64,000 bases of DNA from Candidatus Schekmanbacteria bacterium (GTDB taxonomy: Bacteria; SZUA-182), in assembly GCA_016235675.1 (NCBI GenBank), contig JACRJN010000131.1, positions 1,779 through 65,778 of the forward strand, read 5' to 3'. Below, in pieces: positions 2,361 to 62,660 of the stretch (positions are counted from its first letter, which is position 1; the number at the start of each line of letters is the position of its first letter). Both the position numbers and the translations under genes were made by a program. The notes beneath the pieces are model-generated. The model did not search any database, was not told the DNA's origin, and was given only the letters and a program-made list of their open reading frames with translations.

Positions 2361-4112
2361 ATGCAGGCAGGAAAAATAATCAAAGTGGCTGGCCCTTTGG
2401 TGGTTGCCGACGGCATGGTTGACGCCAAGATGTATGACGTGGTCAAAGTCGGCCTTGAGGAACTGATCGGCGAGATTGTGGAAATCAAAGGCGATAAAGC
2501 CTCGATTCAGGTCTACGAGGAAACGGGAGGCATCGGCCCCGGCGATCCGGTGATCACTACCGGTATGCCGCTTAGCGTCGAGTTAGGCCCCGGATTGCTG
2601 CAAAGCATTTACGACGGTATTCAGCGCCCGCTGGAATTGATCTACGGCAAGGTCGGGGATTTGATCACCCGCGGGGTTAACGTCCCCAGCCTGAATCGGG
2701 AAAAGAAATGGGCGTTTACTCCGACTGGCAAAACGGGTGATAAGGTGCAGGCCGGGGATATTTTGGGCACGCTGCCGGAAACCAGGGTTATTACCCATAA
2801 GGTGCTGGTTCCGCCCGGAATCGAGGGAGAGATCGTTAAGATTGCGGCAGGCGGCGAATACACCATTACCGATACCATCGCCCGCATTAAAACCAAAAAC
2901 GGTGAACAGGATATTTGTATGCTGCAAAAGTGGCCGGTGCGTATCAGCCGTCCCTTAAAGGGTAAGCTTTCGCCCAAAGAGCCGCTTTCCACCGGACAGC
3001 GCATTATCGACACCCTCTTTCCCCTGGCCAAGGGCGGAACGGCTTGTGTTCCCGGCCCCTTCGGTTCAGGCAAGACCGTAGTGCAGCATCAGTTGGCCAA
3101 ATGGGCATCTGCCGAGATTGTGGTTTATATCGGCTGCGGCGAGCGCGGCAACGAGATGACCGACGTTTTGATCGAACTGCCGGAGATCGAAGACCCCAGA
3201 ACCGGTGAATCGCTGATGCAGCGCACCGTTTTGATCGCCAACACCTCAAACATGCCGGTGGCCGCCCGTGAAGCCTCGGTCTATACCGGGATCACCCTGG
3301 CCGAATATTACCGCGATATGGGCTACCATGTGGCGCTGATGGCTGATTCCACCTCCCGCTGGGCGGAAGCCTTGCGCGAGATGTCGGGACGTCTGGAAGA
3401 GATGCCCGGAGAAGAAGGCTATCCGGCTTATCTGGCGACCAAGATCGCCGATTTCTACGAGCGCGCCGGTCGGGTCAACACCCTGGGCAGCAACGGCAGA
3501 GAGGGATCGATCAGCGTTATCGGAGCGGTTTCCCCTCCCGGCGGCGACATGTCCGACCCGGTGGTGCAGGCCACCCTCAAGGTGGTTAAGGTCTTCTGGG
3601 GGCTGGACGCCAATTTAGCCTACCGCCGGCATTTCCCCGCCATCAACTGGCTGCAAAGCTATTCACTGTATATGGACAACCTCAAGGATTACCTGACCGG
3701 AGAAATTGCCCGCGACTGGGTCACCATCCGCCAGAAAGCCATGGCGCTGTTACAGAAAGAGGCGGAACTGGAAGAAATCGTACGACTAATCGGCAAGGAC
3801 TCCCTCTCCCCTACCGATCAGCTAACCCTGGAAATCACCAAGATCATCCGCGAGGATTTTCTGCATCAGAACGCCTTCCACGCCCAGGACTCCTACACCT
3901 CGCTGAACAAGCAATATAACTTGCTGAAGCTGATTCTCACCGCCGAAGAACTGTTCCGCTCCGCAGTCGAAGCCAAAATTCCCTTAAAGCGCATCCTCTC
4001 CATCCCGGCCCTGGAAGAAATCGCCAAAGCCAAGTTTATCACCGAAGACAAACCGGAGGAGATCGAAGCCATCGGGCAGAGATTGAGGGAGCAGGTAGGG
4101 GGGTTGAAGTAA
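2361..4112 (+). CDS. ntpA: V-type ATP synthase catalytic subunit A
   Basis: 583 aa. Walker A GPFGSGKTV, GCGERGNEM and SRWAEALREMSGRLEEMPGEEGYPAYL motifs. Confidence 0.97.
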   Translation: MQAGKIIKVAGPLVVADGMVDAKMYDVVKVGLEELIGEIVEIKGDKASIQVYEETGGIGPGDPVITTGMPLSVELGPGLLQSIYDGIQRPLELIYGKVGDLITRGVNVPSLNREKKWAFTPTGKTGDKVQAGDILGTLPETRVITHKVLVPPGIEGEIVKIAAGGEYTITDTIARIKTKNGEQDICMLQKWPVRISRPLKGKLSPKEPLSTGQRIIDTLFPLAKGGTACVPGPFGSGKTVVQHQLAKWASAEIVVYIGCGERGNEMTDVLIELPEIEDPRTGESLMQRTVLIANTSNMPVAAREASVYTGITLAEYYRDMGYHVALMADSTSRWAEALREMSGRLEEMPGEEGYPAYLATKIADFYERAGRVNTLGSNGREGSISVIGAVSPPGGDMSDPVVQATLKVVKVFWGLDANLAYRRHFPAINWLQSYSLYMDNLKDYLTGEIARDWVTIRQKAMALLQKEAELEEIVRLIGKDSLSPTDQLTLEITKIIREDFLHQNAFHAQDSYTSLNKQYNLLKLILTAEELFRSAVEAKIPLKRILSIPALEEIAKAKFITEDKPEEIEAIGQRLREQVGGLK

Positions 4113-4118
4113 CATAGG

Positions 4119-4165
4119 GTAGGGTGGGCTGCGCCCACCATTTTGATGGGCACAGCCCACCCTAC
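4119..4165. repeat. R-D doublet: GTAGGGTGGGC TGC GCCCACC ... GGGCACAGCCCACCCTAC
   Basis: Two inverted GTAG-anchored hairpins, starting 7 nt after the ntpA stop. Confidence 0.9.
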
Positions 4166-4650: not shown

Positions 4651-4742
4651 GTAGGGTGGGCTGTGCCCACCAAAGGCTAACCAGGGCAATTTGAACAGCG
4701 ACATATGGGCGAAAAACAAAAGGTTGGCAAAGCCCACCCTAC
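4651..4742. repeat. R-D doublet with about 50-nt spacer
   Basis: GTAGGGTGGGCTGTGCCCACC at the left end and AAGCCCACCCTAC at the right end. Confidence 0.85.
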
Positions 4743-4771: not shown

Positions 4772-5323
4772 ATGCAGGGTTTGGCGATAAAGCAAAAAAA
4801 ATATACTTATCAGGACTATTTAAAAACCCCGGACGATATGCGGTATGAACTAATTGAGGGAGATTTAATAATGACACCGGCGCCATATATTCGACACCAA
4901 AGAATTTCCAGTAACTTGTTTTTCAAGATGAGAGATTTCACAAGCACCAATAATTTAGGCGAGGTTTTTTACGCTCCCTGCGATGTCTACTTAGACGATG
5001 AGAATGTTGTTCAGCCGGATATACTCTTCGTTTCCAAGGAGCGTCTGGAAATTATCACGGAAAAGAATATCCAGGGTGCGCCGGATTTGGTAGTGGAAAT
5101 TGTTTCGGAAGGAAATGCTTACCGGGACACCATACAGAAAAAAAGACTATACGCCCGTTTCGGGGTGAAAGAATATTGGATAGTGGCACCGGGGGAAAAG
5201 ATGATCGAACAATATCATTTGAATAAGCAGGGTTACCAATTGATTAGGACTTATTATCATGAGGATCATCTCATATCCCAGGAATTGCAGGATTTCACGA
5301 TTGAATTGAGGGAGGTTTTTTAA
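4772..5323 (+). CDS. Uma2 family (DUF820) endonuclease
   Basis: 183 aa. YELIEGDLIMTPAP, QPDILFV and APDLVVEIVSE..YRD...K..LYARFGVKEYW motifs. Confidence 0.85.
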   Translation: MQGLAIKQKKYTYQDYLKTPDDMRYELIEGDLIMTPAPYIRHQRISSNLFFKMRDFTSTNNLGEVFYAPCDVYLDDENVVQPDILFVSKERLEIITEKNIQGAPDLVVEIVSEGNAYRDTIQKKRLYARFGVKEYWIVAPGEKMIEQYHLNKQGYQLIRTYYHEDHLISQELQDFTIELREVF

Positions 5324-5415: not shown

Positions 5416-6816
5416 ATGCCGAAAGAATACCGAACTGTGGCCTCGGTTTCCGGACCGTTGATTTTAGTGGACAAGGTAGAAAGCATTAAATACGAAGAAC
5501 TGGTGGAAGTGGAACTGCCCGGCGAACAAATCCGTCTGGGCAAGGTACTGGAGGTCTCAGGAAATACCGCCCTGGTGCAGCTTTTCGGTACATCTACCGG
5601 CATCAATATCTATCAGAGCAAAATTCGCTTTCTGGGCAAGGGGATTGAACTGGGGGTTTCTCCCGATTTATTGGGACGGATTTTCGACGGCCTGGGACGC
5701 CCGATCGACAATGGCCCGCGCATTATCCCGGAAAAACGCCTGAACATCAACGGGAATCCGATCAACCCCTATGCCCGCGATTATCCCTCGGAGTTTATCC
5801 AGACCGGTATTTCCACCATCGACGGCCTAAATACACTGGTGCGCGGACAAAAATTGCCCATCTTCTCAGGTGCCGGTCTCCCGCACTCCCAAATGGCGGC
5901 CCAAATCGCCCGTCAATCCAAGGTTTTGGGCAAGGAAGAAGCCTTTGCCGTGGTCTTTGCCGCCATGGGCATCACCTTTGAGGAATACGAGTTTTTCCGC
6001 CAAGATTTCCAGAAATCCGGTGCGCTGGAACGCTCGGTGCTGTTCGTCAATCTGGCCAATGACCCGGCGGTAGAACGCATCGCCACCCCGCGAATGGCCC
6101 TGACCGCCGCTGAATATCTGGCATTTGAGAAGGATATGCACGTTCTGGTTATCTTAACCGATCTGACCAATTATTGCGAAGCCCTGCGCGAGGTTTCCGC
6201 CGCCCGCAAGGAAATACCCGGTCGCCGCGGTTATCCCGGTTACATGTATACCGACCTGTCCACGATTTATGAACGCGCCGGACGCATCAAGGGCAAAAAG
6301 GGATCGATCACCCAGATTCCCATTCTTACCATGCCGGAAGATGACAAAACCCATCCCATCCCGGATTTGACCGGTTATATTACCGAGGGACAAATTATCC
6401 TGGGACGGGCGATGCACCGCAAAGGCATCTATCCCCCAATCGATGTCTTGCCGTGTCTTTCCCGCTTGCGGGATAAAGGCATCGGCGAGGGCAAGACCAG
6501 GGAAGACCACGCCGGCTGGTCGAATCAATTGTTTGCCGCCTATGCCAGGGGTAAAGAGTCTGAAGAATTGGCGGTTATATTGGGTGAATCGGCTCTATCG
6601 GCAGCCGATAAAACCTTCCTTAAATTCGCCCTGGAATTTGAGCGGCGGTTTGTACAGCAAGGGGCCTATGAAGACCGGGCTATCGAGGAAACTTTGGCTA
6701 TCGGCTGGGAATTAATGGCGGCACTTCCGAAAGCCGAACTCAAACGGGTGAAAGAGGATCATATCGCTAAATATATGCCGGCGGGGAAAGAATTAGGCTT
6801 GAGGCTTGAGGCCTGA
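5416..6816 (+). CDS. ntpB: V-type ATP synthase subunit B
   Basis: 466 aa. [21 protein letters not shown] and [21 protein letters not shown] motifs. The last codons (GLRLEA) are encoded by the GGCTTGAG tandem repeat. Confidence 0.97.
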
Positions 6817-6921
6817 GGCTTGAGTAATGAGATTTGAGGTAAAATCACAGGCAGGATGCCTGTGCTACCGTAGGGCGAATTTGTATTCGCCCTCTTTCCC
6901 TCAAGCCTCAAGTCTCAAGCC
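6796..6921. repeat. Composite palindrome: GGCTTGAG x3-4 arms enclosing an R-E hairpin and a GTAGGGCGAAT hairpin
   Basis: Left arm 6796..6824, right arm 6898..6921. Inner CACAGGCAGGATGCCTGTGCTACC and GTAGGGCGAATTTGTATTCGCCC. Confidence 0.9.
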
Positions 6922-8182: not shown

Positions 8183-8250
8183 AATAATTTTACACTAAAC
8201 AGTCATGCTCCTTCAGAACGACACAAAACATGAAAACATTCCCCCCTGCC

Positions 8251-8310
8251 GTAGTGCCGGGGCTTTAGCCCCGGTAGTTCAGCCCTGAAGGGCTGGAACT
8301 ACGAAACTAC
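8251..8310. repeat. R-B type hairpins (GTAGTGCCGGGGCTTTAGCCCCGG; GTAGTTCAGCCCTGAAGGGCTGGAACTAC)
   Basis: Read directly. Ends with a tandem GAAACTAC. Confidence 0.85.
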
Positions 8311-8335
8311 GAAACACAAACAGGCATTTAGCCTT

Positions 8336-21592: not shown

Positions 21593-21815
21593 TAAGACGT
21601 AGCGCAGGGCTTTAGCCCCAATACTGTTCCCCTAACGTAGCGCAGACCTTTAGGTCTGCTCCGGAGTGCTCACAAAGCCACCCCATAAGCAGGGATAGAA
21701 GCCCTGCGCTACGTCTTAAGTGAACGGTATTGGCTTTAGCCCTGCTTCCGGACACACATCAAACCCGGTAGCCGGTAGCAGACCTAAAGGTCTGCACTAC
21801 GTTAGGGGAACAGTA
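21593..21815. repeat. R-A element whose first hairpin is interrupted by a second R-A element
   Basis: GTAG at 21599. The host hairpin GCAGG GCTTTAGCCC TGC is split. The right end is GCAGACCTAAAGGTCTGCACTAC (to 21800) plus GTTAGGGGAACAG. Confidence 0.85.
21619..21732. mobile_element. 114-nt R-A MITE-like element (TIR CAATACTGTTC.../...GAACGGTATTG) with a 10-bp target duplication
   Basis: GCTTTAGCCC at 21609..21618 and 21733..21742. Removing the element plus one duplicate restores the canonical hairpin GCAGGGCTTTAGCCCTGC. Confidence 0.8.
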
Positions 21816-25181: not shown

Positions 25182-26936
25182 TCACCCTTTTCTCCAAATA
25201 GCATAATCATTGATGACTAATAAATCAAGCTTTGATTTTAATAAAACGTCAACAGCCTGATCGCTGTTTTCCACAATGGGGTGACCGTGCAAATTAAATG
25301 AGGTATTCAGCACACAGGGAATCCCGGTCTTTTGGTAAAAGCCCTCGACAATCTGATAGAAATCCGGATAGCGCTCTTTGGTCACCGTCTCAGCACGGGC
25401 GGTAAAATCGGACTGATGCAGGGCGCAGGCGATACTCTCCCTTTGGTCTTCCACGGTTTCGAAGGCAAACATCATATACGGCGATCCTTGAGATTTTAAA
25501 GCGTTGGGAATCCTGATCAATTGCCCGGCTTTGTCCCATAACATCGCCGGAGCAAAGGGCATCCAGAAATCCCGGTTCTTTATCGCCCGGTTGATTTTGC
25601 CCACCACATTTAAATTGGAAGGGTTAGCCAGAATGGATCGATTTCCCAGCGCTCTTGCGCCGAATTCCATCGGCCCGGAACAGCGCGCCACAATCTTGCC
25701 GGCAACCAATTGCCCGACAATGTAAGCGTTGATGTCCTTGATTCGCTCGTATTCGATCTGCCCCCGGTATTTTTCTAAAACCGCGGGCAAATCCCCGCCG
25801 ATAACAGACCCCAGGCAATAGGATTTTAAATTGTCCACCTTTTTTTCTATATGGGTGTTGTACAGATAAAACCCGGCGCCGAACACATTGGATTCATCCC
25901 CGCAGGAAGGGAAAACATCGATGTATTCCACCTCCGGCATCTGAGACAAAAGCATATTGGTCTTGACGTTCATAAAAACACCGCCGCTGCACAGAATTTT
26001 CCCGACCCCGTATTTTTTGATCGCCCCCCGAATCCAGGCGCCGAGAATCTCCTCGGTAAAGGCTTGCAGACCGGCAGCCACATTATCAAAACGCGCCCTT
26101 TTCAAATCATTTAACAAATGGCGCATGAAAATTTCATGATATAACAATTTGGAATTTTCAAAGCGGGTATCGTCGTCGGCCAGTTTGAGAAACTGGCTGA
26201 AATACTTTTTATATTTGTCTTGATGTTTTTTGTCAACATAAGGAGCCAAACCCATTAATTTATATTCATGTTCGTGAGGGGTAAAACCCAGATGATGGGT
26301 CACCGCCGAATACATATTCCCGATCGAATAGCAAGGAGAGCTTGACAACAACTGCAAGTTTCCGCCCTGCCCCAGATACAGCGCGCTGGTATAGCGATCC
26401 CCGCCGCCGTCTAAGGTAAACACCAGGTACTTTTCATCCAGATGCCTGGCCAGTCCGTAATAAGCCGCCGAGGCATGGCACAAATGGTGCTCGACGCGCT
26501 CGATTCTGTCCGGCCTAAACCCCAGGTGCGCCAAATAATCCAAATCTTTTTCTTTGCCGCGGTTAATTTGCTGACGCGAGCGCAGATAGACCCCGAACAG
26601 GAAATCGCTGGACTTGATATTTTTTCTTAGCTCATTGCGTACTCTGGTGATATTGATCGGATTGCCGCAAGCCCGCCGATAATGCCGCTCATAGTTATTG
26701 TAAAAGGTGGTGCGGTTCAGCTCCCGATAAATGGCGTTAGCAATACCGACATATTCCACCTCAGATGGCCGGACGATTCCGTTTTTGATGATATAATCCA
26801 GCGCTTTATAGGGGAAGCCCATCCAGTTTTTGGTTCTAATCAGACGCTCCTCTTCCATACAAAACACCGGTTTGCCGTTCTGAAAAACCCCCAGCGAACT
26901 GCCTAACCCCGAATTTATGGTCACTATTGTGCTCAT
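25182..26936 (-). CDS. Carbamoyltransferase (NodU/CmcH family)
   Basis: MSTIVTINSG..S.GVFQNGK N-terminus, HHLCHASAAYY, and a C-terminal NTSFNLHGHPIV motif. ATG at 26936 follows AGGAGAAGG. Confidence 0.88.
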   Translation of the reverse strand: MSTIVTINSGLGSSLGVFQNGKPVFCMEEERLIRTKNWMGFPYKALDYIIKNGIVRPSEVEYVGIANAIYRELNRTTFYNNYERHYRRACGNPINITRVRNELRKNIKSSDFLFGVYLRSRQQINRGKEKDLDYLAHLGFRPDRIERVEHHLCHASAAYYGLARHLDEKYLVFTLDGGGDRYTSALYLGQGGNLQLLSSSPCYSIGNMYSAVTHHLGFTPHEHEYKLMGLAPYVDKKHQDKYKKYFSQFLKLADDDTRFENSKLLYHEIFMRHLLNDLKRARFDNVAAGLQAFTEEILGAWIRGAIKKYGVGKILCSGGVFMNVKTNMLLSQMPEVEYIDVFPSCGDESNVFGAGFYLYNTHIEKKVDNLKSYCLGSVIGGDLPAVLEKYRGQIEYERIKDINAYIVGQLVAGKIVARCSGPMEFGARALGNRSILANPSNLNVVGKINRAIKNRDFWMPFAPAMLWDKAGQLIRIPNALKSQGSPYMMFAFETVEDQRESIACALHQSDFTARAETVTKERYPDFYQIVEGFYQKTGIPCVLNTSFNLHGHPIVENSDQAVDVLLKSKLDLLVINDYAIWRKG

Positions 26937-26971
26937 GCCTTCTCCTGACAATAAACCCCACCTTGAATTTC

Positions 26972-27031
26972 GTAGTCCCAGCCCTTCAGGGCTGATCTTC
27001 CAGGGCTAAAGCCCTGGCACTACGGCTACGG
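26972..27031. repeat. R-B doublet: GTAGTCCCAGCCCTTCAGGGCTG ... CCAGGGCTAAAGCCCTGGCACTAC(GGCTACGG)
   Basis: Lies between two 47-nt direct copies of the gene junction (26899..26945 and 27052..27098). Confidence 0.9.
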
Positions 27032-27085
27032 CAGGAATGTTTGGTGGTATCCTGCCTAACCCCGAATTTATGGCCACTATCGTGC

Positions 27086-28216
27086 TCATGCCTTCTCCAA
27101 TACCTGTATATACAACTCTTGGGTAGTTTTCAGCATCTGCCGCAGGGAAAACCGCTCTTCGATAATTCTTCTCCCGCGCTTTCCAAAAGCCTCCGCCAGA
27201 TTCTTATCCGCTAACACCCGGTTAATCGCCGCAACCAGCGGCTCAGGCTGATTGGAGGGGACTAAAAACCCGCTGACACCGTCTTCAACCAATTCAGAGC
27301 AGCCGCCGACGTTAGTTGCGACTACCGGCTTTCGGGCGGCCATCGCCTCCATGATCGCACCCGGCAGACCCTCGGAGATTGAGGTAAGCACCAGAACATC
27401 GAAAACCTGCAAAATCCGGGGGATGTCATCCCGCGTACCCAGAAAGAAAAAACGATCCCTTAGGGAAAAATCCTTCAGCCAGCCGGCCTTGGCGGTCTGA
27501 TCCAAACCCTGGCCGGCCAGGACAAAACAGAGATGCTCTTTTTGAGCGGCTAAAATTTTGGCGGCCTGAATAAATAAGGGAATGTTCTTGGCCACAGCAT
27601 CCCGGCTGATTATTCCCACTACCTGAGAATCCGACGGCAAGCCCAACTGCGCCTTAATTATTCCCCTGTCTTCGGTCAATTTAAACAGGTCTGGATCGAT
27701 CCCGTTAAAAATAGTTATAATCTTGCTTTCATCCAACCCAAGATTATCGACCAGGTAATCCTTTAAATCCAGGGAATTGACCATGACGATCGCTGCTGAA
27801 TTAAGTGCTAGGGTATCGAAAAATTTTCTTAAAGCCGAGGGACTTTTCCGATAGCCCAGCACCGAGGGGATAAAAGCCTTGATGCCCGCAAGCTTACAGG
27901 CAAAATAGCTGTACACGACAGCAATATACAACAGGGCATGAACGATTTGAATTTTTTCTTTTTTAAAGAGCCAGGCCAGTTTAAATAAGCGGATTAAATC
28001 GAAGTTGGATTTTCTTTTAAAGGTATAGACCTTGATCCCCTGCTTCGTCAGCTTTTCCCCGTAAGGGTAATCCTTCTCCGACAGGCAAAACACTGTGGGA
28101 TTAAACCGGGTGCGATCCAGGCGAATCACCATTTCATATAGCTGCTGCTTTTCCGCCCCGCCCCAGGATAACTGCCCGATGACGAGCGCCAGATTTATCG
28201 GTTGATCTATTTGCAT
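27086..28216 (-). CDS. Glycosyltransferase family 4 (GT-B)
   Basis: 376 aa. C-terminal SISEGLPGAIMEAMAARKPVVATNVGG (EX7E-type) motif. Confidence 0.88.
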   Translation of the reverse strand: MQIDQPINLALVIGQLSWGGAEKQQLYEMVIRLDRTRFNPTVFCLSEKDYPYGEKLTKQGIKVYTFKRKSNFDLIRLFKLAWLFKKEKIQIVHALLYIAVVYSYFACKLAGIKAFIPSVLGYRKSPSALRKFFDTLALNSAAIVMVNSLDLKDYLVDNLGLDESKIITIFNGIDPDLFKLTEDRGIIKAQLGLPSDSQVVGIISRDAVAKNIPLFIQAAKILAAQKEHLCFVLAGQGLDQTAKAGWLKDFSLRDRFFFLGTRDDIPRILQVFDVLVLTSISEGLPGAIMEAMAARKPVVATNVGGCSELVEDGVSGFLVPSNQPEPLVAAINRVLADKNLAEAFGKRGRRIIEERFSLRQMLKTTQELYIQVLEKA

Positions 28217-28224
28217 GTTTATTT

Positions 28225-28428
28225 TTTTGTATTTGGTAGCACAGGCTTCTAGCCTGTGATATCATTTTCTGGTTGTCATTCCCGAATGACTTTATCGGGA
28301 ATCCAGTTCTAAAGTTCTAATTGCTTGAAAAGCCATATCCCCGATAAAGACATTCGGGGATGACAGAGTGCCTTCTCAACCAGAAAATGATATGACCTGT
28401 GATGCACAGGCTAGAAGCCTGTGCTACC
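28225..28428. repeat. Composite palindrome: R-E hairpins at both ends plus ATCATTTTCTGGTT arms, enclosing R-K (28275..28364)
   Basis: GGTAGCACAGGCTTCTAGCCTGTG ... CACAGGCTAGAAGCCTGTGCTACC. The right end supplies the stop codon of 28424..29056. Confidence 0.9.
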
Positions 28429-34639: not shown

Positions 34640-35851
34640 TTATGCCGTAATCAATTCGGCTAATTGAGCCACATTCTTTCTAATATCAAAAGATTCGCAA
34701 ACCCTTTGCCGCCCGGCTTTTCCTAACCTTTGGCGCAAATCCGGGTCGTGATATAGTTTTTTAATCGCCTCCTTCAAGGCCAAAACATCTGCGGGAGGAA
34801 CGATTAGCCCGGTTTCCATATTATGCACCAATTCGGGAATAGCGGAAATATCGGTTGAGATTACCGGCACTTCCAATGCCAGCGCTTCGATAAATACGTT
34901 GGGAAGGCCATCCTGCCGGTTACCGTTGAGTGTAACGCAAGGCAGGACAAAGACATCAGCCGACTTCATCTTTTCAATTACCTGAGGATGAGGCAAATGA
35001 TTGCTGATTTTCACCCGGTCACCTAATTGATATTTTCGGTGCAAGGCGATTATTTCCTCTTTGGCCGGGCCGTTTCCGCCGATAATCTCCGCACTAAATT
35101 CCATCCCTTCTTTTTTCAGCAGATGAAGCGCTTCGATTAAATATTTGAACCCCTTCTTTTCCACCATCCGCCCAACCGCCAGGATATTGAATTTCCCGTT
35201 GCTTCTACTCCCAAGAGGCTGATAATGATTGGGGTTCAATCCATGATAATTTACCTTAATTTTATCGGCAAAGCCGTTTTCACATAAAGTAATTAAATAT
35301 TTCTGATTAAATTGTGTACAGGTAACCATACATTTGGCTTTTTTAATCTTCTGCCGCAACCCATATGTATCTACAAAAATATCCCAGGCATGACCGGTAA
35401 AGGAAAATCCCAACCCTAAAAGCCGGGCGATTATCATGGCGCTTGCCGTAGAAGTCGTCGCCCAATGGGCATGGATATAGCGAATATTTTGTTCCTCGAT
35501 AAGTTTAGCGTAATAAACAGATTTTGGGAAGATAGCCAACGCCCTAAGGATAAAAGCTAACTCGTTAGAATTGGTAAAAAGTTCTTTTAAGACGGCTAGA
35601 TATTGCTTGGGTTTTTTCGCAAGATAATAAATATGCGCCCATAAAATCTTTAAGGATAACAGGTAGGGGCTGTAATAAACCGGCCTTTTCAGTTGATTTA
35701 ATAACGGATAATTTTTCTCCAAATCAGCCAGTTTTTTCCCCAAGGCAAATATATGTAAATCAATTCCCTGATTGGCTAATTCCAGCATCTCCCGCAGAAT
35801 AAATTCCGATCCCAGAGATGTGTTGATATAAGCTATCTTTTGTTTTGCCAT
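34640..35851 (-). CDS. Glycosyltransferase family 4
   Basis: 403 aa. VFVLPC....NRQDGLPNVFIEALALEVPVISTDISA motif. GAAGGAAG RBS directly next to the repeat. Confidence 0.88.
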   Translation of the reverse strand: MAKQKIAYINTSLGSEFILREMLELANQGIDLHIFALGKKLADLEKNYPLLNQLKRPVYYSPYLLSLKILWAHIYYLAKKPKQYLAVLKELFTNSNELAFILRALAIFPKSVYYAKLIEEQNIRYIHAHWATTSTASAMIIARLLGLGFSFTGHAWDIFVDTYGLRQKIKKAKCMVTCTQFNQKYLITLCENGFADKIKVNYHGLNPNHYQPLGSRSNGKFNILAVGRMVEKKGFKYLIEALHLLKKEGMEFSAEIIGGNGPAKEEIIALHRKYQLGDRVKISNHLPHPQVIEKMKSADVFVLPCVTLNGNRQDGLPNVFIEALALEVPVISTDISAIPELVHNMETGLIVPPADVLALKEAIKKLYHDPDLRQRLGKAGRQRVCESFDIRKNVAQLAELITA

Positions 35852-37412
35852 CTAACTTCCTTCTTTGGTAGCACAGGCTGGAAGCACATGACACAGGCTG
35901 GAAGCCTGTGTTACCGGATGCAGGGCTGAAGCCCTGCGCTACACTTTTTTGCCTCCCGGTTAAAAGCCTCCCTTTAGCTTTAACAGTAATTCCGGCCATG
36001 ATCCAAAAATAAGCCGTTAATTCATTGGAAAAAAAGCGCGCTCCCGATAAATCCAATAAAAACAGGGCGATGACACAACCCAGTAGCCCGCCGGCCAGCG
36101 CCTTAATGTAGGGATCGTCCGTCTGGCGCATTACCTGCCGGGCACTAAAAAAAACAGCCGCCAAAATCCATAAATACAAAATTAACCCGACGATTCCTTC
36201 CTCGACTGCAATCCAAATAAACGAACTATGAGCCGCTTTGGGAAACGGAAGCACCCCACATCTGACCACCACTTCCTGGAATGTTTCAAAACCCGTACCC
36301 AAGATGGGGGCTTCGGCCATCATCCGCGGCAATCCTTTCCACTGGCGTAGCCTCAATTCTGTGGAATTATCGTATTGCTGATTTTCATATTTTCCCTGCA
36401 CCCCTTCTTCCAGAAAGGTATCGTCTACCCGTTCTTCTACCGCCGGCGGCGGATGCACCAAGATCACAACTAAAGCCAACAACATAAATAAAAGCAGGCG
36501 CTTATCTTTAACCAGTCCCAGGAACAAAAGACTGGCCAAACAGGCCAGCCAGGAACCGCGGGATAAGGTGGTAAACAAGGCCAGAAAACATAAACCGGTA
36601 CCCGCTAAAAGCAGGTAATGCCGTTTGGAGGGCAGTTTCAGATATAAAGAGCAAATAAATAGCGGGGTATACATAGCCAGAAAGCCGCCATATAAATTAG
36701 GCTGATCCCCGATTACCCCGCCTCCGTTTCTGTTCCGCTCGATATAATCCGCTATTCGAAAAAAATCTTTTAACGAAAGTATTACGATAATTCCGATCGT
36801 TACTAAAAGAAAAATCAACAAACGGCGGCTATAATGCAAATCGTAAGATTTTAAGGTGATGAAATATAAAGAAACATAAATAAGCCAATTTTTAGCGACA
36901 CTTAAGCGTTCAACATCCGAACAATACGCGGAAGGCATCCTGAAAATGGATAATAAAGTAAAAAATACAAGCAGATAAACAGGTATTTTTAACGGATCGC
37001 ATCTCGAATTTTCTTGCGGCTGCTTTTGGGAAAACACGCCAAGAAATAAAATGGCCACAATAATAGTTTGGGCGTTTATTCCGGTTATGCCGAAAAAATC
37101 AGGGGGAAAGAGGTCTAAAATCGGCATAAAAAAGATAAAAAAACAAACCGCTAAATCGATTCTTACAAAGGCCAAATAAGTCCAAAAAATACCCAGGGAA
37201 AACCCTAAGAAAATCTTTACCGGATAATAAGGCAAAAATATCGCGCAAATTACCGCCGCCACAAGAACCGATAAACTTGTTTTTTCAAACCGATCAACCG
37301 AAGAGACATCAGATTTGCCGGATGTTTCGGTTGGATTTAAATAATTTAATTGATACACAGGTGAAGTGTCCACAACTTTCCTCAGTGCTATGAAATACGA
37401 CAAAACTCCCAT
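35760..37412 (-). CDS. O-antigen ligase/polymerase-like (Wzy/WaaL family) polytopic membrane protein
   Basis: About 10 predicted TM helices with a large loop (SRGSWLA...). Both ends are uncertain: start alternatives at 37496 (GTG) and 37412 (ATG). The 3' end reads through the repeat and 92 nt into the next gene. Confidence 0.65.
   Translation of the reverse strand: MGVLSYFIALRKVVDTSPVYQLNYLNPTETSGKSDVSSVDRFEKTSLSVLVAAVICAIFLPYYPVKIFLGFSLGIFWTYLAFVRIDLAVCFFIFFMPILDLFPPDFFGITGINAQTIIVAILFLGVFSQKQPQENSRCDPLKIPVYLLVFFTLLSIFRMPSAYCSDVERLSVAKNWLIYVSLYFITLKSYDLHYSRRLLIFLLVTIGIIVILSLKDFFRIADYIERNRNGGGVIGDQPNLYGGFLAMYTPLFICSLYLKLPSKRHYLLLAGTGLCFLALFTTLSRGSWLACLASLLFLGLVKDKRLLLFMLLALVVILVHPPPAVEERVDDTFLEEGVQGKYENQQYDNSTELRLRQWKGLPRMMAEAPILGTGFETFQEVVVRCGVLPFPKAAHSSFIWIAVEEGIVGLILYLWILAAVFFSARQVMRQTDDPYIKALAGGLLGCVIALFLLDLSGARFFSNELTAYFWIMAGITVKAKGRLLTGRQKSVAQGFSPASGNTGFQPVSCASSLCYQRRKLDGKTKDSLYQHISGIGIYSAGDAGISQSGN
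35867..35942. repeat. Triple-hairpin element (copy 2 of the 29871 type)
   Basis: GGTAGCACAGGCTGGAAGCACATG A CACAGGCTGGAAGCCTGTGTTACC GGAT GCAGGGCTGAAGCCCTGCGCTAC. Lies inside the 3' end of ORF 35760..37496. Confidence 0.9.
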
Positions 37413-38842
37413 AACCGGTACAAGCGCGCCTTTTCCTGGGCGGCAAAAAAACCGCTCAGCCAAAGTAATACGGGAAACAAAAGAATTAACATGCACTTAT
37501 AAGCGATAGCCACGCTTATTGCTTCAATATTAATCAGTACCCCCGCCAAATATAAAGCTAAGCTAATCGCTATTAATTTGATGATACGACCAAATTCATA
37601 TCTGACAGGATAAAGCTTCATCGAAAGAACGACTATCATAATAAATTGAAAAATATAGGCCAGCAACGTCGCATAAGCCGCCCCCATCATCCCAAAAGAT
37701 GGGATCCAAAGAAAATTCAATCCGACATTCAACAGCGCAGCAATTCCTACAGCCGTGCTGAAATATGAAGTTTTACTCTTCAAATATACACCGACCGCCA
37801 CTACATTGAACAGCCCGTAAAATAACTGGGATAGGGCAATGATCGGAATCACCCGGTAAGCCTCTAAAAATTTAGGCGTGGTGGCTAAAATAATAATTTC
37901 CCTGGCCAATATCGATAAGGACAGGCAGACAAAGGACATTATCGCAAAAAAATAAGTGCTGGTTTTGGAATATAACTCGTTGGCATTTGGCGATTTTTCG
38001 TTGGAAAACACAAATTGCGGCCAGGCCAGTTGAAAAGCCCAGGCCAGAAACCACAGAATTTCCCCGAATCTATAGCCTAATGAATAGATACCCACTTGAT
38101 CCAGCGTACTATACATTTTTAACATGTATCTGTCCGACAGGGTTAAGATTATCCCGCCGATGCCGGAGAAGATTAAGGGAACGCCGAACCGCAGCAGACT
38201 TTTTGCTTCGGTTAAAGAAAACCGAAAAGGCACATCCCTTAAAATCCAGGGGATAAGAATGAGGCAAACTAACAAACCGGCCAGGCATTGACTGATTAAA
38301 ATCCCCCAGAACCCTTTTTTAAATGCCACTACTAAAAAAATAGTCAATAACAAGGTAAAACCGGTATCGGATAAAGTCAGTACGGCATATTTCTTCGATT
38401 CGCCTTGCGCCCGCAGGCAGGAAAAAGGGATTTTGGCCAATTGGGAAAAAACACCGGTTAAAGACACGATGATCACGGCATTGGCATAAACCGGGCTTCC
38501 CAGCAACAATCTGGAAATCCCGGCTGAATTAACAATAATAATGCCCATCACCGGCAGAGAAATCAGCAGCATTATAAATCCGGAGGTGCTTAAAACCAGG
38601 TTTTTCCCCTCCGGTGTCTCGGCCTTAAAATAATTTTTAAATATGGCGCTGCTCATCCCCAGGTTTAAAAATATAAACAAAAAGGAGCCGAACAGGGAAC
38701 ATAAAGACAAGATTCCATAATCCGCGGGCGTCAGATAACGGGTATAAAGCGGAATCAGCAAAAATCCCACTATTTTCCCGGCGGTATTTCCTAAAACATA
38801 GAAAATACTATCGGAAAATAATTTTTTAATTTTGGAAAACAT
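37388..38842 (-). CDS. Polysaccharide flippase (Wzx, MOP superfamily)
   Basis: 484 aa, about 12-14 TM helices. N-terminal GNTAGKIVGFLLIPLYTRYL motif. Confidence 0.85.
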   Translation of the reverse strand: MFSKIKKLFSDSIFYVLGNTAGKIVGFLLIPLYTRYLTPADYGILSLCSLFGSFLFIFLNLGMSSAIFKNYFKAETPEGKNLVLSTSGFIMLLISLPVMGIIIVNSAGISRLLLGSPVYANAVIIVSLTGVFSQLAKIPFSCLRAQGESKKYAVLTLSDTGFTLLLTIFLVVAFKKGFWGILISQCLAGLLVCLILIPWILRDVPFRFSLTEAKSLLRFGVPLIFSGIGGIILTLSDRYMLKMYSTLDQVGIYSLGYRFGEILWFLAWAFQLAWPQFVFSNEKSPNANELYSKTSTYFFAIMSFVCLSLSILAREIIILATTPKFLEAYRVIPIIALSQLFYGLFNVVAVGVYLKSKTSYFSTAVGIAALLNVGLNFLWIPSFGMMGAAYATLLAYIFQFIMIVVLSMKLYPVRYEFGRIIKLIAISLALYLAGVLINIEAISVAIAYKCMLILLFPVLLWLSGFFAAQEKARLYRLWEFCRIS

Positions 38843-41067: not shown

Positions 41068-41098
41068 ATTTGCATTATCCATTGTCAATTGTCCATTA

Positions 41099-41731
41099 TC
41101 AAGGCAGCCAGGGGTCGAGCGCCGGAAGCAATCCCTGGATAAAATCCTCCAGATCAGCCTGGGAGTCGGCGGAGACCCGCACCAAACCGCTGGCGCAATA
41201 GCCGTTGACCAGGCTGGAGCAGATATTGGCCGTCATCTGGCTGAATCTGTCGGTCATTTGCTTTTTGCCCTGGGCAAACCACCAATAGAGAACGGTCGAC
41301 CTTCCCTGGTCAATTTTTTCCACTTCCAGTTTGTTGACCGCTATCCCGGCTTGGGCCAGCTTAACTACTTGCGTATTCAATCCGTCAGCCTTAACAATCG
41401 ACCAGCCTTGCGAGGTGTAGCAAGTCTGCACATCATGGGCGCCCCAGCGGTCGTTTTCATGAAATACCACCACTAACAGTATGCGTGCGCCGGATTCATT
41501 GCCGTATTCCCGGAAGATCAGGGCTTGCGGGCCAAGCGCAGAAAAGCTTTTCTCATCCATCGCGATGTCGGAAATATAGCGCCAGCCGCCGATTTGCCTG
41601 GGGAAGCTTTGGATTTTCTGCGCAAACGCCACCGAGCCGAATTCCCCCTGGCGGGGCTGGTTAAAAAATTCCAGATAGATACAAACGGGGATAAGTAAAG
41701 CGATTATAATCAGGAGGCGCTTATTTGGCAT
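41099..41731 (-). CDS. EpsI-family exosortase-associated protein
   Basis: MPNKRLLIIIALLIPV anchor. Size and position overlapping the exosortase stop. ATG at 41731. Confidence 0.7.
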   Translation of the reverse strand: MPNKRLLIIIALLIPVCIYLEFFNQPRQGEFGSVAFAQKIQSFPRQIGGWRYISDIAMDEKSFSALGPQALIFREYGNESGARILLVVVFHENDRWGAHDVQTCYTSQGWSIVKADGLNTQVVKLAQAGIAVNKLEVEKIDQGRSTVLYWWFAQGKKQMTDRFSQMTANICSSLVNGYCASGLVRVSADSQADLEDFIQGLLPALDPWLP

Positions 41732-42544: not shown

Positions 42545-42602
42545 GTTGTCAGTTGTCAGTTGTCGGTTTTAATTCTTTAACTGACAACCGACAACTGACA
42601 AC
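42545..42602. repeat. GTTGTCA heptamer-triplet palindrome
   Basis: GTTGTCAGTTGTCAGTTGTCGGTT...AACTGACAACCGACAACTGACAAC. Confidence 0.9.
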
Positions 42603-42620
42603 TTTTTTTCATCACCAGCC

Positions 42621-42686
42621 GTAGTCCCAGCCCTTTAGGGCTGAATTTCCGGGGCTAAAGCCCCGGCACTACGGCTACGGCTACGG
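42621..42686. repeat. R-B doublet plus tandem CTACGG x3
   Basis: GTAGTCCCAGCCCTTTAGGGCTG...CCGGGGCTAAAGCCCCGGCACTACGGCTACGGCTACGG. Confidence 0.9.
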
Positions 42687-42705
42687 CTGACAATCGCCTG
42701 TACCG

Positions 42706-51372: not shown

Positions 51373-51686
51373 TTACCACGAAGGCCACAAAGCACACGAA
51401 GAAAAAATTTCGAGAGTGTTCACCTAAAGATAGATATTTATATATTTAAAAACGTAGTCCCGTGGCTTTAGCCGCGTATTTTCAGCCCCTTAGGGCTGCA
51501 AAAAAAGGTGTGTTCGTATGGAACGCGCCGAAAGTATTGAGAGTCATAATTGCAGGGCTAACGCCCTGAAGTTCAGCCCTGAAGGGCTGGGACTACGATA
51601 TTACTGGGACTACGATATTATATTGATGTTTTGGCCAATCCCCAGGCCGAAAAATTTCTTCGTGCTCTTCGTGTGCTTCGTGGTTG
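51373..51686. repeat. R-F composite: CACGAAG arms enclosing four R-B-type hairpins
   Basis: CCACGAAGGCCACAAAGCACACGAAGAA ... GTAGTCCCGTGGCTTTAGCCGCG, CAGCCCCTTAGGGCTG, GCAGGGCTAACGCCCTGA, CAGCCCTGAAGGGCTGGGACTAC ... TTCTTCGTGCTCTTCGTGTGCTTCGTGG. Confidence 0.88.
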
Positions 51687-53997: not shown

Positions 53998-55320
53998 ATG
54001 ACCACTAAAATAATCGATGCGGTCTGCGCCGCCGGGGTAGTCGGAGCGGGCGGAGCCGGATTTCCCGCTCATATCAAGCTGCAAGCCAAAGTCGATCTGA
54101 TCATCGCCAACGGCTGCGAATGCGAACCGCTGCTTTGTACCGATCAATATCTTATGGAAAATCAGGCCGATGCGGTGATAAAGGGATTATCCCTTGCCCT
54201 TCAGACCACCGGAGCGGATAAAGGTATCATCGCCCTGAAGGGAAAATACTCCGCTTCATACCAAGCGTTACAAAAAGCGGCTAAAGGTATCAAGGCAATA
54301 GAATTCAGCTTATTGCCCAATTATTATCCCATGGGGGATGAACAAATCCTGACCTGGCAGGTTTCGGGACGCCTGGTGCCCCTGGGCGGGATTCCCACCC
54401 AGGCCGGGGTTTTAGTGCAAAACGTGACCACACTGTCCCAAATAGCCGCAGCTATTGACGGGCTGCCGGTCACTCATCGAATGGTTGCCGTTTTGGGAGA
54501 AGTCGCCGAACCTAAGGTATTGAAAGTCCCTGTCGGTACCCCGGTTTCCCAGGTCATCGCATGGACGGGCGGCTTTCTGCGTGAGGACGTCGCGATCATT
54601 ACCGGCGGCCCGATGATGGGGCAATTGACGGTCGATCCCGACACCCCGATAACCAAAACCACCAATGCCTTGCTGGTATTGCCTAAAGAACACCATTTAA
54701 TCCTCAACAAAAGAAAAAACCTGCTGCATATGCAGCGCCACAGCCAATCCTACTGCCACGCCTGCTCAGGCTGTCAGATATTGTGCCCGCGCCAGGGTTT
54801 GGGACATCCCATCAGGCCGCAGCGTTCCATGCGTTCTGCCGGTTACCCCTTTACCACCCTCCCCTCCCCTTTACACAATATAACAGCATGCAGCCAATGC
54901 GGAGTTTGCGGATTTTATGCTTGCCCTATGGGATTAAATCCGGCTATAATACATAAAGACTTGCAAAAATATCCAAAAGATCATAAAATAATGATTATTC
55001 CCACATCACGCTCACAAAATCGATCGCTCCCCTTGGGAATTCCCACTGTCCGCCTCATTCAACGTCTGGGGCTGGGACGCTATAACCAACATCCGGCGCT
55101 GGATAACAACCGTTATCAGCCACAGTGGGTCAGATTGCCTTTAAAACAGCATGTAGGCGATGCTTCAATTCCGGTGGTGTCGGAAGGCGCCAAAGTTAAA
55201 GCCGGGGATTTACTGGCAAAGATTCCCGCCGGTAAATTAGGGGCCAGACTACATGCTTCGATAAATGGCAAGGTTAAGAAGATTACGGAGCGGGAAATAA
55301 TTATAACAATGGACAATTGA
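53998..55320 (+). CDS. RnfC/PduS-like electron-transfer protein (NADH-binding-like domain, SLBB, two 4Fe-4S motifs, C-terminal barrel-sandwich hybrid)
   Basis: GVVGAGGAGFPAHIKL. CHACSGCQILCP and CSQCGVCGFYACP. C-terminal VKAGDLLAKIP..KLGARLHASINGKV. ATG at 53998 chosen because upstream codons are repeat-derived. Confidence 0.7.
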   Translation: MTTKIIDAVCAAGVVGAGGAGFPAHIKLQAKVDLIIANGCECEPLLCTDQYLMENQADAVIKGLSLALQTTGADKGIIALKGKYSASYQALQKAAKGIKAIEFSLLPNYYPMGDEQILTWQVSGRLVPLGGIPTQAGVLVQNVTTLSQIAAAIDGLPVTHRMVAVLGEVAEPKVLKVPVGTPVSQVIAWTGGFLREDVAIITGGPMMGQLTVDPDTPITKTTNALLVLPKEHHLILNKRKNLLHMQRHSQSYCHACSGCQILCPRQGLGHPIRPQRSMRSAGYPFTTLPSPLHNITACSQCGVCGFYACPMGLNPAIIHKDLQKYPKDHKIMIIPTSRSQNRSLPLGIPTVRLIQRLGLGRYNQHPALDNNRYQPQWVRLPLKQHVGDASIPVVSEGAKVKAGDLLAKIPAGKLGARLHASINGKVKKITEREIIITMDN

Positions 55321-55382
55321 CAATGGACAATTGACAGTTTTTCGTTATCCATTATCCACTATCCACTATCCACTATCCATTG
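55308..55382. repeat. GGACAATTGACAAT x2 and CCACTAT heptamer x3 tracts
   Basis: CAATGGACAATTGACAATGGACAATTGACAG overlaps the stop of 53998..55320. Followed by CCATTATCCACTATCCACTATCCACTATCCATTG. Confidence 0.85.
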
Positions 55383-57138: not shown

Positions 57139-57265
57139 TTCACTTAAGACGTAGCGCAGGGCTTTAGCCCTGCTTATGGCGGCTTTGGTAGGCACTCCGG
57201 AGCAGACCTAAAGGTCTGCTCTACGTTAAGTGAACAGTCTGCGCTACGTTAAGTGAACAGTATTG
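57139..57265. mobile_element. R-A MITE-like element at the recJ/cytochrome junction (left TIR lacks its first 8 nt; right end partly duplicated)
   Basis: TTCACTTAAGACGTAGCGCAGGGCTTTAGCCCTGC...GCAGACCTAAAGGTCTGCTCTACGTTAAGTGAACAGT CTGCGCTACGTTAAGTGAACAGTATTG. Flanked by GGATTAAGG at 57130..57138 and 57266..57274. Confidence 0.75.
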
Positions 57266-59829: not shown

Positions 59830-59966
59830 CAATGCTGTTGACTTAAGACGTAGCGCAGGGCTTTAGCCCTGCTTAAGACGCGGCATTTGACCCCTGTGGC
59901 TGTAGCAGACCTAAAGGTCTGCGCTACATAAACATCAAAACAAAATTCCTTAAGTCAACAGCATTG
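59830..59966. mobile_element. 137-nt R-A MITE-like element (TIR CAATGCTGTTGACTTAAGACGTAGCGCAG / ...CTTAAGTCAACAGCATTG) inserted in the loop of a GTAG hairpin
   Basis: 11-bp direct duplication GGGGTTTCCCC at 59819..59829 and 59967..59977. The host hairpin GTAGGGGCGGGGG TTT CCCCGCCC spans 59810..59981. Confidence 0.8.
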
Positions 59967-59996
59967 GGGGTTTCCCCGCCCTTTAATTAACTTAAG

Positions 59997-60057
59997 CCGT
60001 AGCCGTAGTGCCAGGGCTTTAGCCCTGGAAATTCAGCCCTAAAGGGCTTTAGACTAC
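59997..60057. repeat. R-B doublet with tandem CCGTAG x2
   Basis: CCGTAGCCGTAGTGCCAGGGCTTTAGCCCTGG...CAGCCCTAAAGGGCTTTAGACTAC. Confidence 0.9.
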
Positions 60058-60521: not shown

Positions 60522-61490
60522 ATGAAAATAATCTTTTGTGGCACGCCGGAATTTGCCCTCCCCAGCTTAAATACCCTACTGACGTCCAAACATCAGGTTT
60601 TGGCGGTGATTACCCCACCCGATCGCCCCGCAGGCCGGGGTAAAAAGCTCAAACCCTCTGCAATTAAGGAAGCCGCCTCAACTCATAATTTACCCATCTT
60701 GCAGCCGGGAAAAATCGGATCGGCGGATTCGCTGGAAAGCATGCGGCAATTGAATCCCGACGCCTTGGCAGTTGTCGCCTTCGGACAACTTCTCCCCCCC
60801 CCGGTACTGAATTTACCCCGCTACGGATGCATCAATGTCCATGCCTCCCTGCTTCCCAAATACCGGGGAGCGGCTCCCATCAATTGGGCGATCATCCGGG
60901 GGGAAACCCAAACCGGGGTCTGCACCATGCGGCTGGATAAAGGGATGGACACCGGCGATGTTATCTTATGCAAGGCTGTCGATATTAGGTCGGAGGAAAC
61001 CGCCGGAACATTACACGACAAGCTGGCCCCGCTGGGCGCGCAATTATTAGCGGAAACATTGGATCAGATCGAAGCGAATACCGCGCTTTATCATCCTCAA
61101 GACCATAACTCGGCCACCTATGCGCCGCTCTTGGATAAATCGATTACCATCATCGACTGGAAACAAAGCGCCGAACAAATCGACTGCCTGGTGCGCGGGT
61201 TAAATCCCTATCCCGGAGCAAAAACATTTTTGGACGATCTGCCGCTGAAAATTCTTACGGTGGAAATCAGCAAGCTAGCTAGCCCGGCCCTACCGGGACA
61301 AATAATTCAGCAAAATCGACGGCAGGGAATTTTAGTCGCGACAGGCAGCGCTCCCATTTGGCTGAAAACAATTCAGCCGGCCAACCGCCAGCCTATGACC
61401 AGTGGCGATTTTCTTTCCGGATTGCGTGAGTCTTTAATAAATAAGGAATTCCGTAGTCCCAGCCCTTTAGGGCTGAATCTCCAGGGCTAA
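60522..61490 (+). CDS. fmt: Methionyl-tRNA formyltransferase
   Basis: 322 aa. MKIIFCGTPEFA, INVHASLLPKYRGAAPI (SLLP) motif. The last ~12 codons and the stop lie inside an R-B doublet. Confidence 0.93.
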   Translation: MKIIFCGTPEFALPSLNTLLTSKHQVLAVITPPDRPAGRGKKLKPSAIKEAASTHNLPILQPGKIGSADSLESMRQLNPDALAVVAFGQLLPPPVLNLPRYGCINVHASLLPKYRGAAPINWAIIRGETQTGVCTMRLDKGMDTGDVILCKAVDIRSEETAGTLHDKLAPLGAQLLAETLDQIEANTALYHPQDHNSATYAPLLDKSITIIDWKQSAEQIDCLVRGLNPYPGAKTFLDDLPLKILTVEISKLASPALPGQIIQQNRRQGILVATGSAPIWLKTIQPANRQPMTSGDFLSGLRESLINKEFRSPSPLGLNLQG

Positions 61491-61504
61491 AGCCCTGGCA
61501 CTAC
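61453..61504. repeat. R-B doublet overlapping the fmt 3' end
   Basis: GTAGTCCCAGCCCTTTAGGGCTG AATCT CCAGGGCTAAAGCCCTGGCACTAC. The fmt stop TAA is in the second loop. Confidence 0.9.
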
Positions 61505-61555
61505 GACTGACAATGGACAACGAATTCATTATCCATTCAATAATGGAGAGCCCTC

Positions 61556-62168: not shown

Positions 62169-62222
62169 GTAGTCTAAAGCCCTTTAGGGCTGAACCTCCA
62201 GGGCTAAAGCCCCGGCACTATG
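62169..62222. repeat. R-B doublet (right anchor degenerate: CACTAT)
   Basis: GTAGTCTAAAGCCCTTTAGGGCTG AACCT CCAGGGCTAAAGCCCCGGCACTAT. Confidence 0.85.
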
Positions 62223-62292: not shown

Positions 62293-62660
62293 GGGGGCGA
62301 CTGGTTTCGACGGGGCTATTGAACCTCCAACTGCATGTCGAGCATTCTACTGACTCGTAAATCCGGTGGAAAAACAATAAACGCAAACTACTATGGCGAA
62401 AGCCAATTAGCTTTAGCCGCCTAATTAGTGCGGCTTCGTCCACCCTGCTTCGCTGATGGAGCGGGATGTGGGCGGCATATACATCAGATAGCGGATCCGC
62501 TTCGCCTAAGGGCGGACGAGCGAAACTACACTTTGGCTGGCCTTTCTTTGATCCTGCCGCCGGGAGCGGAAAGAGGCGAGAAACAATCCAGCGGCTAAAC
62601 ATGTAGAAGTTGCCGGCAAGGTACTCTCGGACGCGGGTTCGATTCCCGCCGCCTCCACCA
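62293..62660 (+). ncRNA. ssrA: tmRNA (SsrA)
   Basis: 5' GGGGGCGACTGGTTTCGACGGGG. 3' GGACGCGGGTTCGATTCCCGCCGCCTCCACCA. Acceptor stem pairs GGGGGCG with CGCCTCC and includes G3:U. Candidate tag ORF GCA AAC TAC TAT GGC GAA AGC CAA TTA GCT TTA GCC GCC TAA at 62383..62424 (ANYYGESQLALAA). Confidence 0.95.

Follow-up and report, generated by a model that had tools for sequence, protein, structure and literature searches.

A 47-bp duplication of an overlapping gene junction brackets a REP/REPIN-type element in a Candidatus Schekmanbacteria polysaccharide cluster

How can a small repeat element come to lie between two closely joined genes of an operon and leave both of them whole? Operons with overlapping stop and start codons are usually regarded as closed to insertions, since any insertion breaks at least one gene. 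The question is raised by a 64-kb stretch of DNA (the window) from a 65.9-kb contig of a Candidatus Schekmanbacteria metagenome-assembled genome (MAG; locus-tag prefix HZA78). Here 106 nt containing a pair of hairpins, of the repetitive extragenic palindrome (REP) or REPIN type, lie between a glycosyltransferase gene and a carbamoyltransferase gene, and 47 nt spanning the junction of the two genes stand on both sides of this insert. We propose, with a probability of roughly 0.6, that a single rare insertion accompanied by a long duplication entered a junction formerly coupled through an ATGA overlap, and survived since both genes were kept. The locus would then be one escape from the rule: with the Shine-Dalgarno (SD) sequence, the stop/start overlap and the first codons all duplicated, a selfish hairpin element can lodge between the genes, whose coupling is thereby lost.

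The two copies of the direct repeat (26899-26945 and 27052-27098) have a start-to-start spacing of 153 nt, are separated by 106 nt (26946-27051) and are identical at 45 of 47 positions. On the plus strand both read CTGCCTAACCCCGAATTTATGG(T/C)CACTAT(T/C)GTGCTCATGCCTTCTCC. In an ungapped comparison of one flank of the insert with the other, the repeat scored 41, whereas shuffled flanks never scored above 10. A window-wide search found this pair to be the only near-perfect non-tandem local repeat of at least 30 nt in the 64 kb. An earlier interpretation made from the letters alone (the sequence-only reading) had described a 47-nt repeat with two mismatches, spaced by 106 nt around a doublet, and the coordinates and the flank comparison bear this out. 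The features of the locus are as follows.

27086..28216, minus strand: GT4-family glycosyltransferase, 376 aa (Pfam Glycos_transf_1, 8e-37; Glyco_transf_4, 4e-17)
27052..27098, minus strand: upstream junction copy, with GGAGAAGGC, the ATGA in which the glycosyltransferase stop and the relic start overlap, and the first 13 relic codons
27006..27089, minus strand: relic (decoy) open reading frame (ORF), 27 codons, MSTIVAINSGLGRIPPNIPAVAVVPGL, made up of MSTIVAINSGLG and RIPPNIPAVAVVPGL
26946..27051, no strand: inserted DNA, 106 nt, consisting of 12 nt of filler with TGACAAT, a 90-nt hairpin unit and 4 nt (TATC)
26958..27047, no strand: REPIN-like unit, outer stem CCACC/GGTGG and inner stem CGTAGT/ACTACG around two hairpins
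27000..27024, minus strand: REP unit b, inverted, GTAG head and hairpin CCAGGGCTTTAGCCCTGG, followed by a duplication of the hexamer CCGTAG (27018-27032)
26970..26994, plus strand: REP unit a, GTAG head and hairpin CAGCCCTTCAGGGCTG
26899..26945, minus strand: downstream junction copy, with GGAGAAGG as the SD in use, and the live carbamoyltransferase from its ATG at 26936 to codon 13
25182..26936, minus strand: NodU/CmcH-type carbamoyltransferase, 584 aa (Pfam Carbam_trans_N/C, 7e-32 and 4e-54)

Read on the minus strand, the upstream copy runs GGAGAAGGC-ATGA-GCACG... The glycosyltransferase ends with ..QVLEKA followed by TGA (GAG AAG GCA TGA), and its last three codons and stop lie inside this copy. 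Its alignment with homologues reaches ..ELYIQVL, directly before the repeat, and its C-terminus matches the end of the homologues. The ATG within ATGA opens the relic ORF, whose stop codon TAG (27008-27006) lies at the first hairpin's loop, with 69 nt between it and the live ATG. The downstream copy carries GGAGAAGGC-ATG, and from this ATG the live carbamoyltransferase begins with MSTIVTINSGLGSS... Public annotation agrees on the starts and stops of both genes (P0001, 584 aa, and P0121, 376 aa, both 100% identical to the proteins of the window). Thus each copy holds, as the sequence-only reading had it, the glycosyltransferase end overlapping the carbamoyltransferase start in ATGA fashion; the upstream copy closes the glycosyltransferase and leaves a decoy that stops in a hairpin loop, and the downstream copy supplies the SD and start codon in use. 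The relic N-terminus MSTIVAINSGLG fits the pattern of the carbamoyltransferase family, MS(L/F)IL(A/S)IN.G, including the consensus Ala6, and judged by its sequence it is a genuine carbamoyltransferase N-terminus. Elsewhere in the window, the ORF at 60522-61490 also ends, with TAA, in a REP hairpin loop, that of a doublet at 61446-61505; the REP loops CTAAAG/CTTTAG supply a stop whichever way the loop is oriented, much as with the relic ORF.

In the upstream copy the glycosyltransferase stop overlaps the relic start, and the putative SD lies within the upstream coding sequence. The live carbamoyltransferase start is 153 nt off and the overlap is gone. Because the glycosyltransferase end and the carbamoyltransferase start adjoin without interruption in each copy, the ancestor probably had them contiguous as well, joined by a 4-nt ATGA overlap with the SD in the last glycosyltransferase codons. 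This is the simplest reconstruction, and it draws on the internal logic of the locus and on the commonness of 4-nt overlaps at the start of this family: an NTGA overlap with an upstream ORF on the same strand was counted at 15 of 70 distant carbamoyltransferase loci, with rough automatic start calling. Other stop/start overlaps occur in the window (ATGA at 48325, TAATG at 58773), and the carbamoyltransferase stop itself overlaps the ATG of the next gene (TGATG at 25182). Both genes belong to a long minus-strand polysaccharide cluster that also encodes an initiating sugar transferase, a PglD-like acetyltransferase, a DegT-family aminotransferase, Wzy-like and Wzx-like proteins, several GT4 enzymes and the exosortase EpsH.

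The two mismatches between the copies are both transitions and lie in the carbamoyltransferase part. At codon 3 the change is synonymous (ACG/ACA); at codon 6 (GCC Ala/ACC Thr) the relic keeps Ala and the live carbamoyltransferase has Thr. The divergence (2/47, about 4%) is confined to the 34 nt that have no function in the upstream copy, and it resembles that among the copies of the element (91-94% identity), which suggests that the event is not recent. This pattern speaks for an event of some age and against an artefact of recent origin. When the edges of the insert were compared with the native flanks, no decayed homology was found past the ends of the 47 nt (p 0.79-0.88), and the ends are sharp.

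What the sequence-only reading called an R-B doublet is, from its sequence, a REP/REPIN-type element, an inverted pair of hairpins with GTAG heads. Each unit consists of a GTAG head followed by a palindrome of 16-18 nt, and a doublet is two units face to face that form a larger hairpin. The REPIN-like unit has a predicted DNA fold of -19.7 kcal/mol (z -2.9), and its core, 26965-27032, which is the conserved part of the insert, gives z -3.9 alone. Five more doublets like this core lie in the window (8248-8306, 42620-42681, 59996-60048, 61446-61505 and 62178-62220), as do variants and members of a second family, which comprises singlets and long doublets. At least 14 copies of such hairpin-forming elements occur in the window. 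Two hairpin patterns matched 17 and 14 times, both strands counted, where 0.07 and 0.02 matches were expected. All copies have the head CGTAGT or GTAGCGC before the hairpin, and nearly all fall between ORFs. The CGTAGT/ACTACG stem encloses both hairpins, and across eight copies 92.7% of cells are paired, with covariation limited to one pair, A-T/G-C. GTAG-headed palindromes of the same build are listed in the REP table of Nunvar et al. (PMC2817692), and the inverted pair corresponds to the REPIN unit of Bertels and Rainey (PMC3116915, PMC3337134). A scan with Rfam returned only a tmRNA in the window at the gathering threshold and no known RNA family for the insert. No transposase domain was found in a scan of the window ORFs of at least 110 aa other than those at 2036-2488, 60522-61490 and 61556-62155.

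The outermost 19 + 19 nt of the insert, which nothing else in the window repeats, pair with each other through CCACC/GGTGG, so that about 90 nt may fold as one hairpin unit; this outermost pairing is specific to the copy at 26958-27047. The heptamer TGACAAY, one instance of which lies in the filler, occurs in non-coding DNA at 17 of its 24 positions in the window, of which non-coding DNA makes up 17%. Since the insert carries non-core flanks as well as TGACAAT, it looks like generic spacer DNA and not like a bare element, in keeping with an intergenic fragment that was copied or captured. Tandem duplications with units of 6, 8, 17 and 23 nt, which include adjacent flank sequence, were seen at REP heads (CTACG) at 8297-8315, 42669-42688, 51587-51620, 57214-57261 and 27018-27032, and from these local re-copying beside REP heads seems recurrent in this genome.

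Is the duplication simply what the element leaves when it inserts? At the 13 other copies of the element in the window, flanking repeats never exceeded the shuffle null, in a test that repeats shorter than about 8 nt would escape. For this reason the 47-bp duplication is not the routine insertion footprint of the element. REP-associated transposases (RAYT) are related to IS200/IS605, a family reported to insert without larger target duplications (PMC2817692). The absence of a duplication at the other copies and the behaviour of IS200/IS605 together support the claim, already made from the letters, that the duplication exceeds an ordinary transposase footprint. Two other identities for the element were rejected. 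A miniature inverted-repeat transposable element derived from a DDE insertion sequence, in which all copies would share terminal inverted repeats and a short target duplication of fixed length, does not agree with copies that lack common terminal inverted repeats and, at the other loci, show no flanking repeats of about 8 nt or more above chance. An element of the IS1634/IS1549 type does not agree with an insert of 106 nt without a gene, nor with a long repeat at only one of 14 copies. We found no precedent, among open-access papers, for a REP or miniature element whose insertion duplicated an overlapping junction; the 47-bp junction duplication around a REP-type element is an unusual variant.

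The proposed history runs as follows. A fragment of 106 bp of typical intergenic DNA, one REP/REPIN double hairpin with filler, would have been placed into the ATGA junction of the exopolysaccharide operon, and 47 bp, from the SD to codon 13 of the carbamoyltransferase, would have ended up on both sides of it. The arrangement could have come from the two strands being broken or nicked at points some 47 nt from each other and filled in around the captured or copied fragment, or from an equivalent replication template switch; the normal transposition of the element would not have made the duplication. The event may have persisted since both genes came through it intact, which an ordinary insertion at an overlap does not allow. 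We infer that translation of the carbamoyltransferase is now uncoupled from termination of the glycosyltransferase and needs its own SD, and that the hairpins probably lie within the operon mRNA without a terminator. No terminator-like site was found in the insert region. The idea that the insert created a promoter was dropped, its single promoter-like match being at chance level.

Several observations weigh against this history. The collections that we searched yielded neither an empty site nor an orthologous junction, so that the ancestral state and the single event are reconstructed. An empty or excised allele would read ..TATTGGAGAAGGCATGAGCAC.. joined directly to ..GGCAGTTCGCTGG.. Look-ups of the exact carbamoyltransferase and of the neighbouring sugar transferase returned no record, and a scan of genome contigs with the carbamoyltransferase gave a best match of 42% identity and none from the same lineage. 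In a protein search the nearest carbamoyltransferase had 57% identity and the nearest glycosyltransferase 59%, on contigs that do not carry the gene pair. Metagenome scans gave 0 hits both with the 47-mer (no population variants) and with the doublet core (no further copies of the element). Within the 64 kb read, no donor locus for the 106-nt insert was found. No microhomology or shared nuclease motif is visible at the junctions; the candidates considered, a shared GAATTT and a CTGCC/GGCAG pair, are both within chance expectation. The start of the downstream copy coincides exactly with the first G of the SD, which under a random stagger is a coincidence of about 1 in 35, and a boundary at this place would be more natural if later deletions had trimmed a larger duplication. 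Finally, the second junction, between the insert and the downstream copy, is supported by the MAG assembly as sole source. The anatomy described by the sequence-only reading thus stands, while its history, with an ancestral junction and a single event, is a reconstruction; on the sequence it appears the most economical one.

The position of that boundary leads to the rival that survives best, which is nevertheless unlikely: an origin in several steps. Either a larger tandem duplication was joined at a REP, or a 47-bp tandem duplication was later hit by the element, and deletions then trimmed the redundant gene copies to their functional limits, leaving junction, element and junction. The downstream copy does end exactly at the SD, the minimal functional limit, and REP heads in the window do bear tandem duplications of 6-23 nt that include flank sequence. 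In enterobacteria, REP sequences are said to be the join points of tandem duplications, a report of Shyamala et al. from 1990. Clusters of tandemly repeated REPINs exist, and their mechanism is not known (PMC3337134). On the other hand, at least three events would be needed, two of them illegitimate deletions independent of each other, or else the element would have had to insert precisely between two tandem copies. The upstream copy was not cut to its limit, as 34 nt of useless carbamoyltransferase sequence were left, and the insert shows no further remnants of either gene.

Whatever its origin, the arrangement might now be functional, which would add to the origin stories. The relic ORF could act as a leader peptide coupled to termination of the glycosyltransferase, opening the hairpins and tuning the expression of the carbamoyltransferase or the stability of the operon mRNA. 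The relic start retains an intact SD and the ATGA overlap, the relic stop lies in the first hairpin loop, and a predicted RNA fold puts the live SD and AUG in a loop whose stem consists of the insert edge and carbamoyltransferase codons 6-12. The pair behind this predicted loop is TTTATGGTCA/TGACAATAAA, which with GGCAGGA/TCCTGCC is one of two inverted repeats over the boundaries of insert and duplication; both are marginal (p about 0.02 each, uncorrected) and are given as leads only. In E. coli, REPs near stop codons affect translation and mRNA decay. Against such a role stand the single locus, a whole-region fold with a z of only -1.9 and the marginal inverted repeats, and we consider it doubtful.

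A broader proposal is equally speculative. The REP/REPIN elements of this lineage might have a second entry route, by wide staggered nicks or a template switch that duplicates tens of bp, through which they colonise overlapping coupled junctions and kill neither gene, with the relic leader ORF co-opted as a translational relay or regulator. Should the full genome or related genomes show the same arrangement again, this would be a sign that REP-type elements, of which the mode of mobilisation is still poorly known, have an insertion route so far unrecognised, and the order junction, element, junction would be a simple search signature for such events. One locus in one MAG is an instructive curiosity and not a general rule.

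It is very unlikely that the two genes never overlapped. On this account the element sat in an ordinary spacer, and the 3' end of the glycosyltransferase gene later received a copy of the carbamoyltransferase leader with its first 13 codons, and with it a new EKA-stop tail. The repeat does hold only three glycosyltransferase codons and the stop, the C-terminal tails of homologues vary by a few residues, and GGAGAAGGC could be the SD region of the carbamoyltransferase itself. However, a non-tandem 47-nt duplication would have to land so as to leave a glycosyltransferase tail of native length, in a protein that aligns with its homologues right up to the repeat, and neither an advantage nor a mechanism is offered. 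Least probable of all is an assembly artefact, in which the assembly crossed, by way of the multicopy element, from one strain variant of the junction to another: the window does come from a MAG, the copies do differ at two sites as strain variants would, and the second junction has the limit given above, but an independent Logan contig (L083, run SRR12113407, 1281 nt) matches window positions 28288..27008 with 0 mismatches through the glycosyltransferase, the upstream copy and the first 44 nt of the insert, so that the junction defining the insertion is present in reads, the 19-nt insert flanks are unique in the window and offer no repeat for a mis-join there, and the longest exact stretch common to the copies, 22 nt, is below usual k-mer sizes.

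Other repeats in the window were recorded in passing. A second, longer REPIN-like family (57140-57262, 59845-59930, 21597-21800 and 16023-16040) has the layout ..CACTTAAGAC-GTAGCGCAGGGCTTTAGCCCTGC, spacer, GCAGACCTAAAGGTCTGCGCTAC-GTTAAGTGAAC.., with inverted outer flanks. A doublet of the second REP family, GTAGCGCAGACCTTTAGGTCTGC / GCAGGGCTAAAGCCCTGCGCTAC, lies in frame (16885-16945, minus strand) within the leucyl-tRNA synthetase gene (16335-18923); compared with the E. coli enzyme structure, the protein has 51 residues instead of 12 between its catalytic and anticodon-binding parts, and the in-frame doublet resembles Rickettsia palindromic elements. The ORF of the Wzy-like protein (35760-37496, minus strand) reads through a REP-type hairpin array (35872-35945) and ends 92 nt into the next glycosyltransferase gene (ATG at 35851); the end of this gene looks remodelled by repeat insertion, without duplication. 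A third GTAG palindrome, GTAGGGTGGGCTG(C/T)GCCCACCA (GTAGGGTGGGCTGCGCCCACC), is present in two direct copies (4119-4140 and 4651-4672) and is nearly identical to the Haemophilus influenzae REP. It lies between the gene for the V-type ATPase A subunit (2361-4112) and a Uma2-family endonuclease gene (4772-5323), which itself sits between the A and B subunit genes. Most intergenic spacers contain short tandem heptamer arrays (AGGCTTG, CGTATCT, ATTGTCA/GTTGTCA, TATCCAC, ACAATGG; for example at 6795-6839, 9257-9286, 41074-41102, 42545-42603 and 55306-55379), which recall the short tandem heptamer repeats known in cyanobacteria. The tmRNA gene (62293-62660, plus strand; RF00023, 194.9 bits) is immediately downstream of the REP doublet at 62178-62220. 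A 54-nt unit is repeated in 2.2 tandem copies with 89% matches near the window end (63661-63779), and 120-nt periodic repeats with 63-71% identity (14854-15453) in the gene of a tetratricopeptide repeat (TPR) protein (14625-15962) are consistent with tandem TPR modules.

How does the locus compare with known systems? Rickettsia palindromic elements, ERIC, Correia and RUP are small repeats that insert into or abut coding regions. The element described here is likewise a small palindrome tolerated at genes, where such palindromes give stop codons or peptide segments, but none of them is known to duplicate an overlapping gene junction. Phages and islands integrate at tRNA or tmRNA genes through an attachment site that repeats the 3' end of the target gene. 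There too, a duplicated gene end on both sides keeps the interrupted gene whole; in those elements, however, the duplicate is carried by the element and serves site-specific recombination, whereas here the host junction sequence was duplicated, no integrase is involved, and a gene end and a gene start were both kept. Long direct repeats upon insertion are also known for IS1634 of Mycoplasma mycoides and IS1549 of Mycobacterium smegmatis (cited in PMC2266710). Their flanking repeats measure, as here, tens to hundreds of bp and not 2-14 bp, whereas IS1634 and IS1549 are autonomous, encode a DDE transposase and produce long repeats every time, and the insert here is 106 bp and non-coding.

The closest likeness is to the REP, BIME and REPIN elements of E. 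coli, Pseudomonas, Stenotrophomonas and Haemophilus, imperfect palindromes of 20-25 nt with a conserved 5' head, GTAG or GTGG. The GTAG palindromes of the window, GTAGCGCAGGGCTTTAGCCCTGC, GTAGTCCCAGCCCTTCAGGGCTG and GTAGGGTGGGCTGCGCCCACC, may be compared with the H. influenzae REP GTAGGGTGGGCTTcAGCCCACC (PMC2817692). In both, inverted pairs form a larger hairpin, the many copies are mostly extragenic, and ordinary copies have no flanking duplication. Unlike REP, BIME and REPIN elements mobilised by RAYT, the gene for which usually has REPs beside it, those of the window are accompanied by no RAYT (Y1 HUH) gene among the ORFs scanned. The host also differs from the usual REPIN hosts in belonging to a candidate phylum, to which the present observations extend GTAG-headed REP/REPIN-like repeats; no earlier description was found in the literature searched. 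Insertion without target duplication, as expected of the family, fits the 13 other copies and fails at the junction copy, which is bracketed by a 47-bp duplication that is not a product of an IS200/IS605-type mechanism. The junction element is a member of the REP/REPIN group by structure, whose insertion is atypical of the mechanism of its family.

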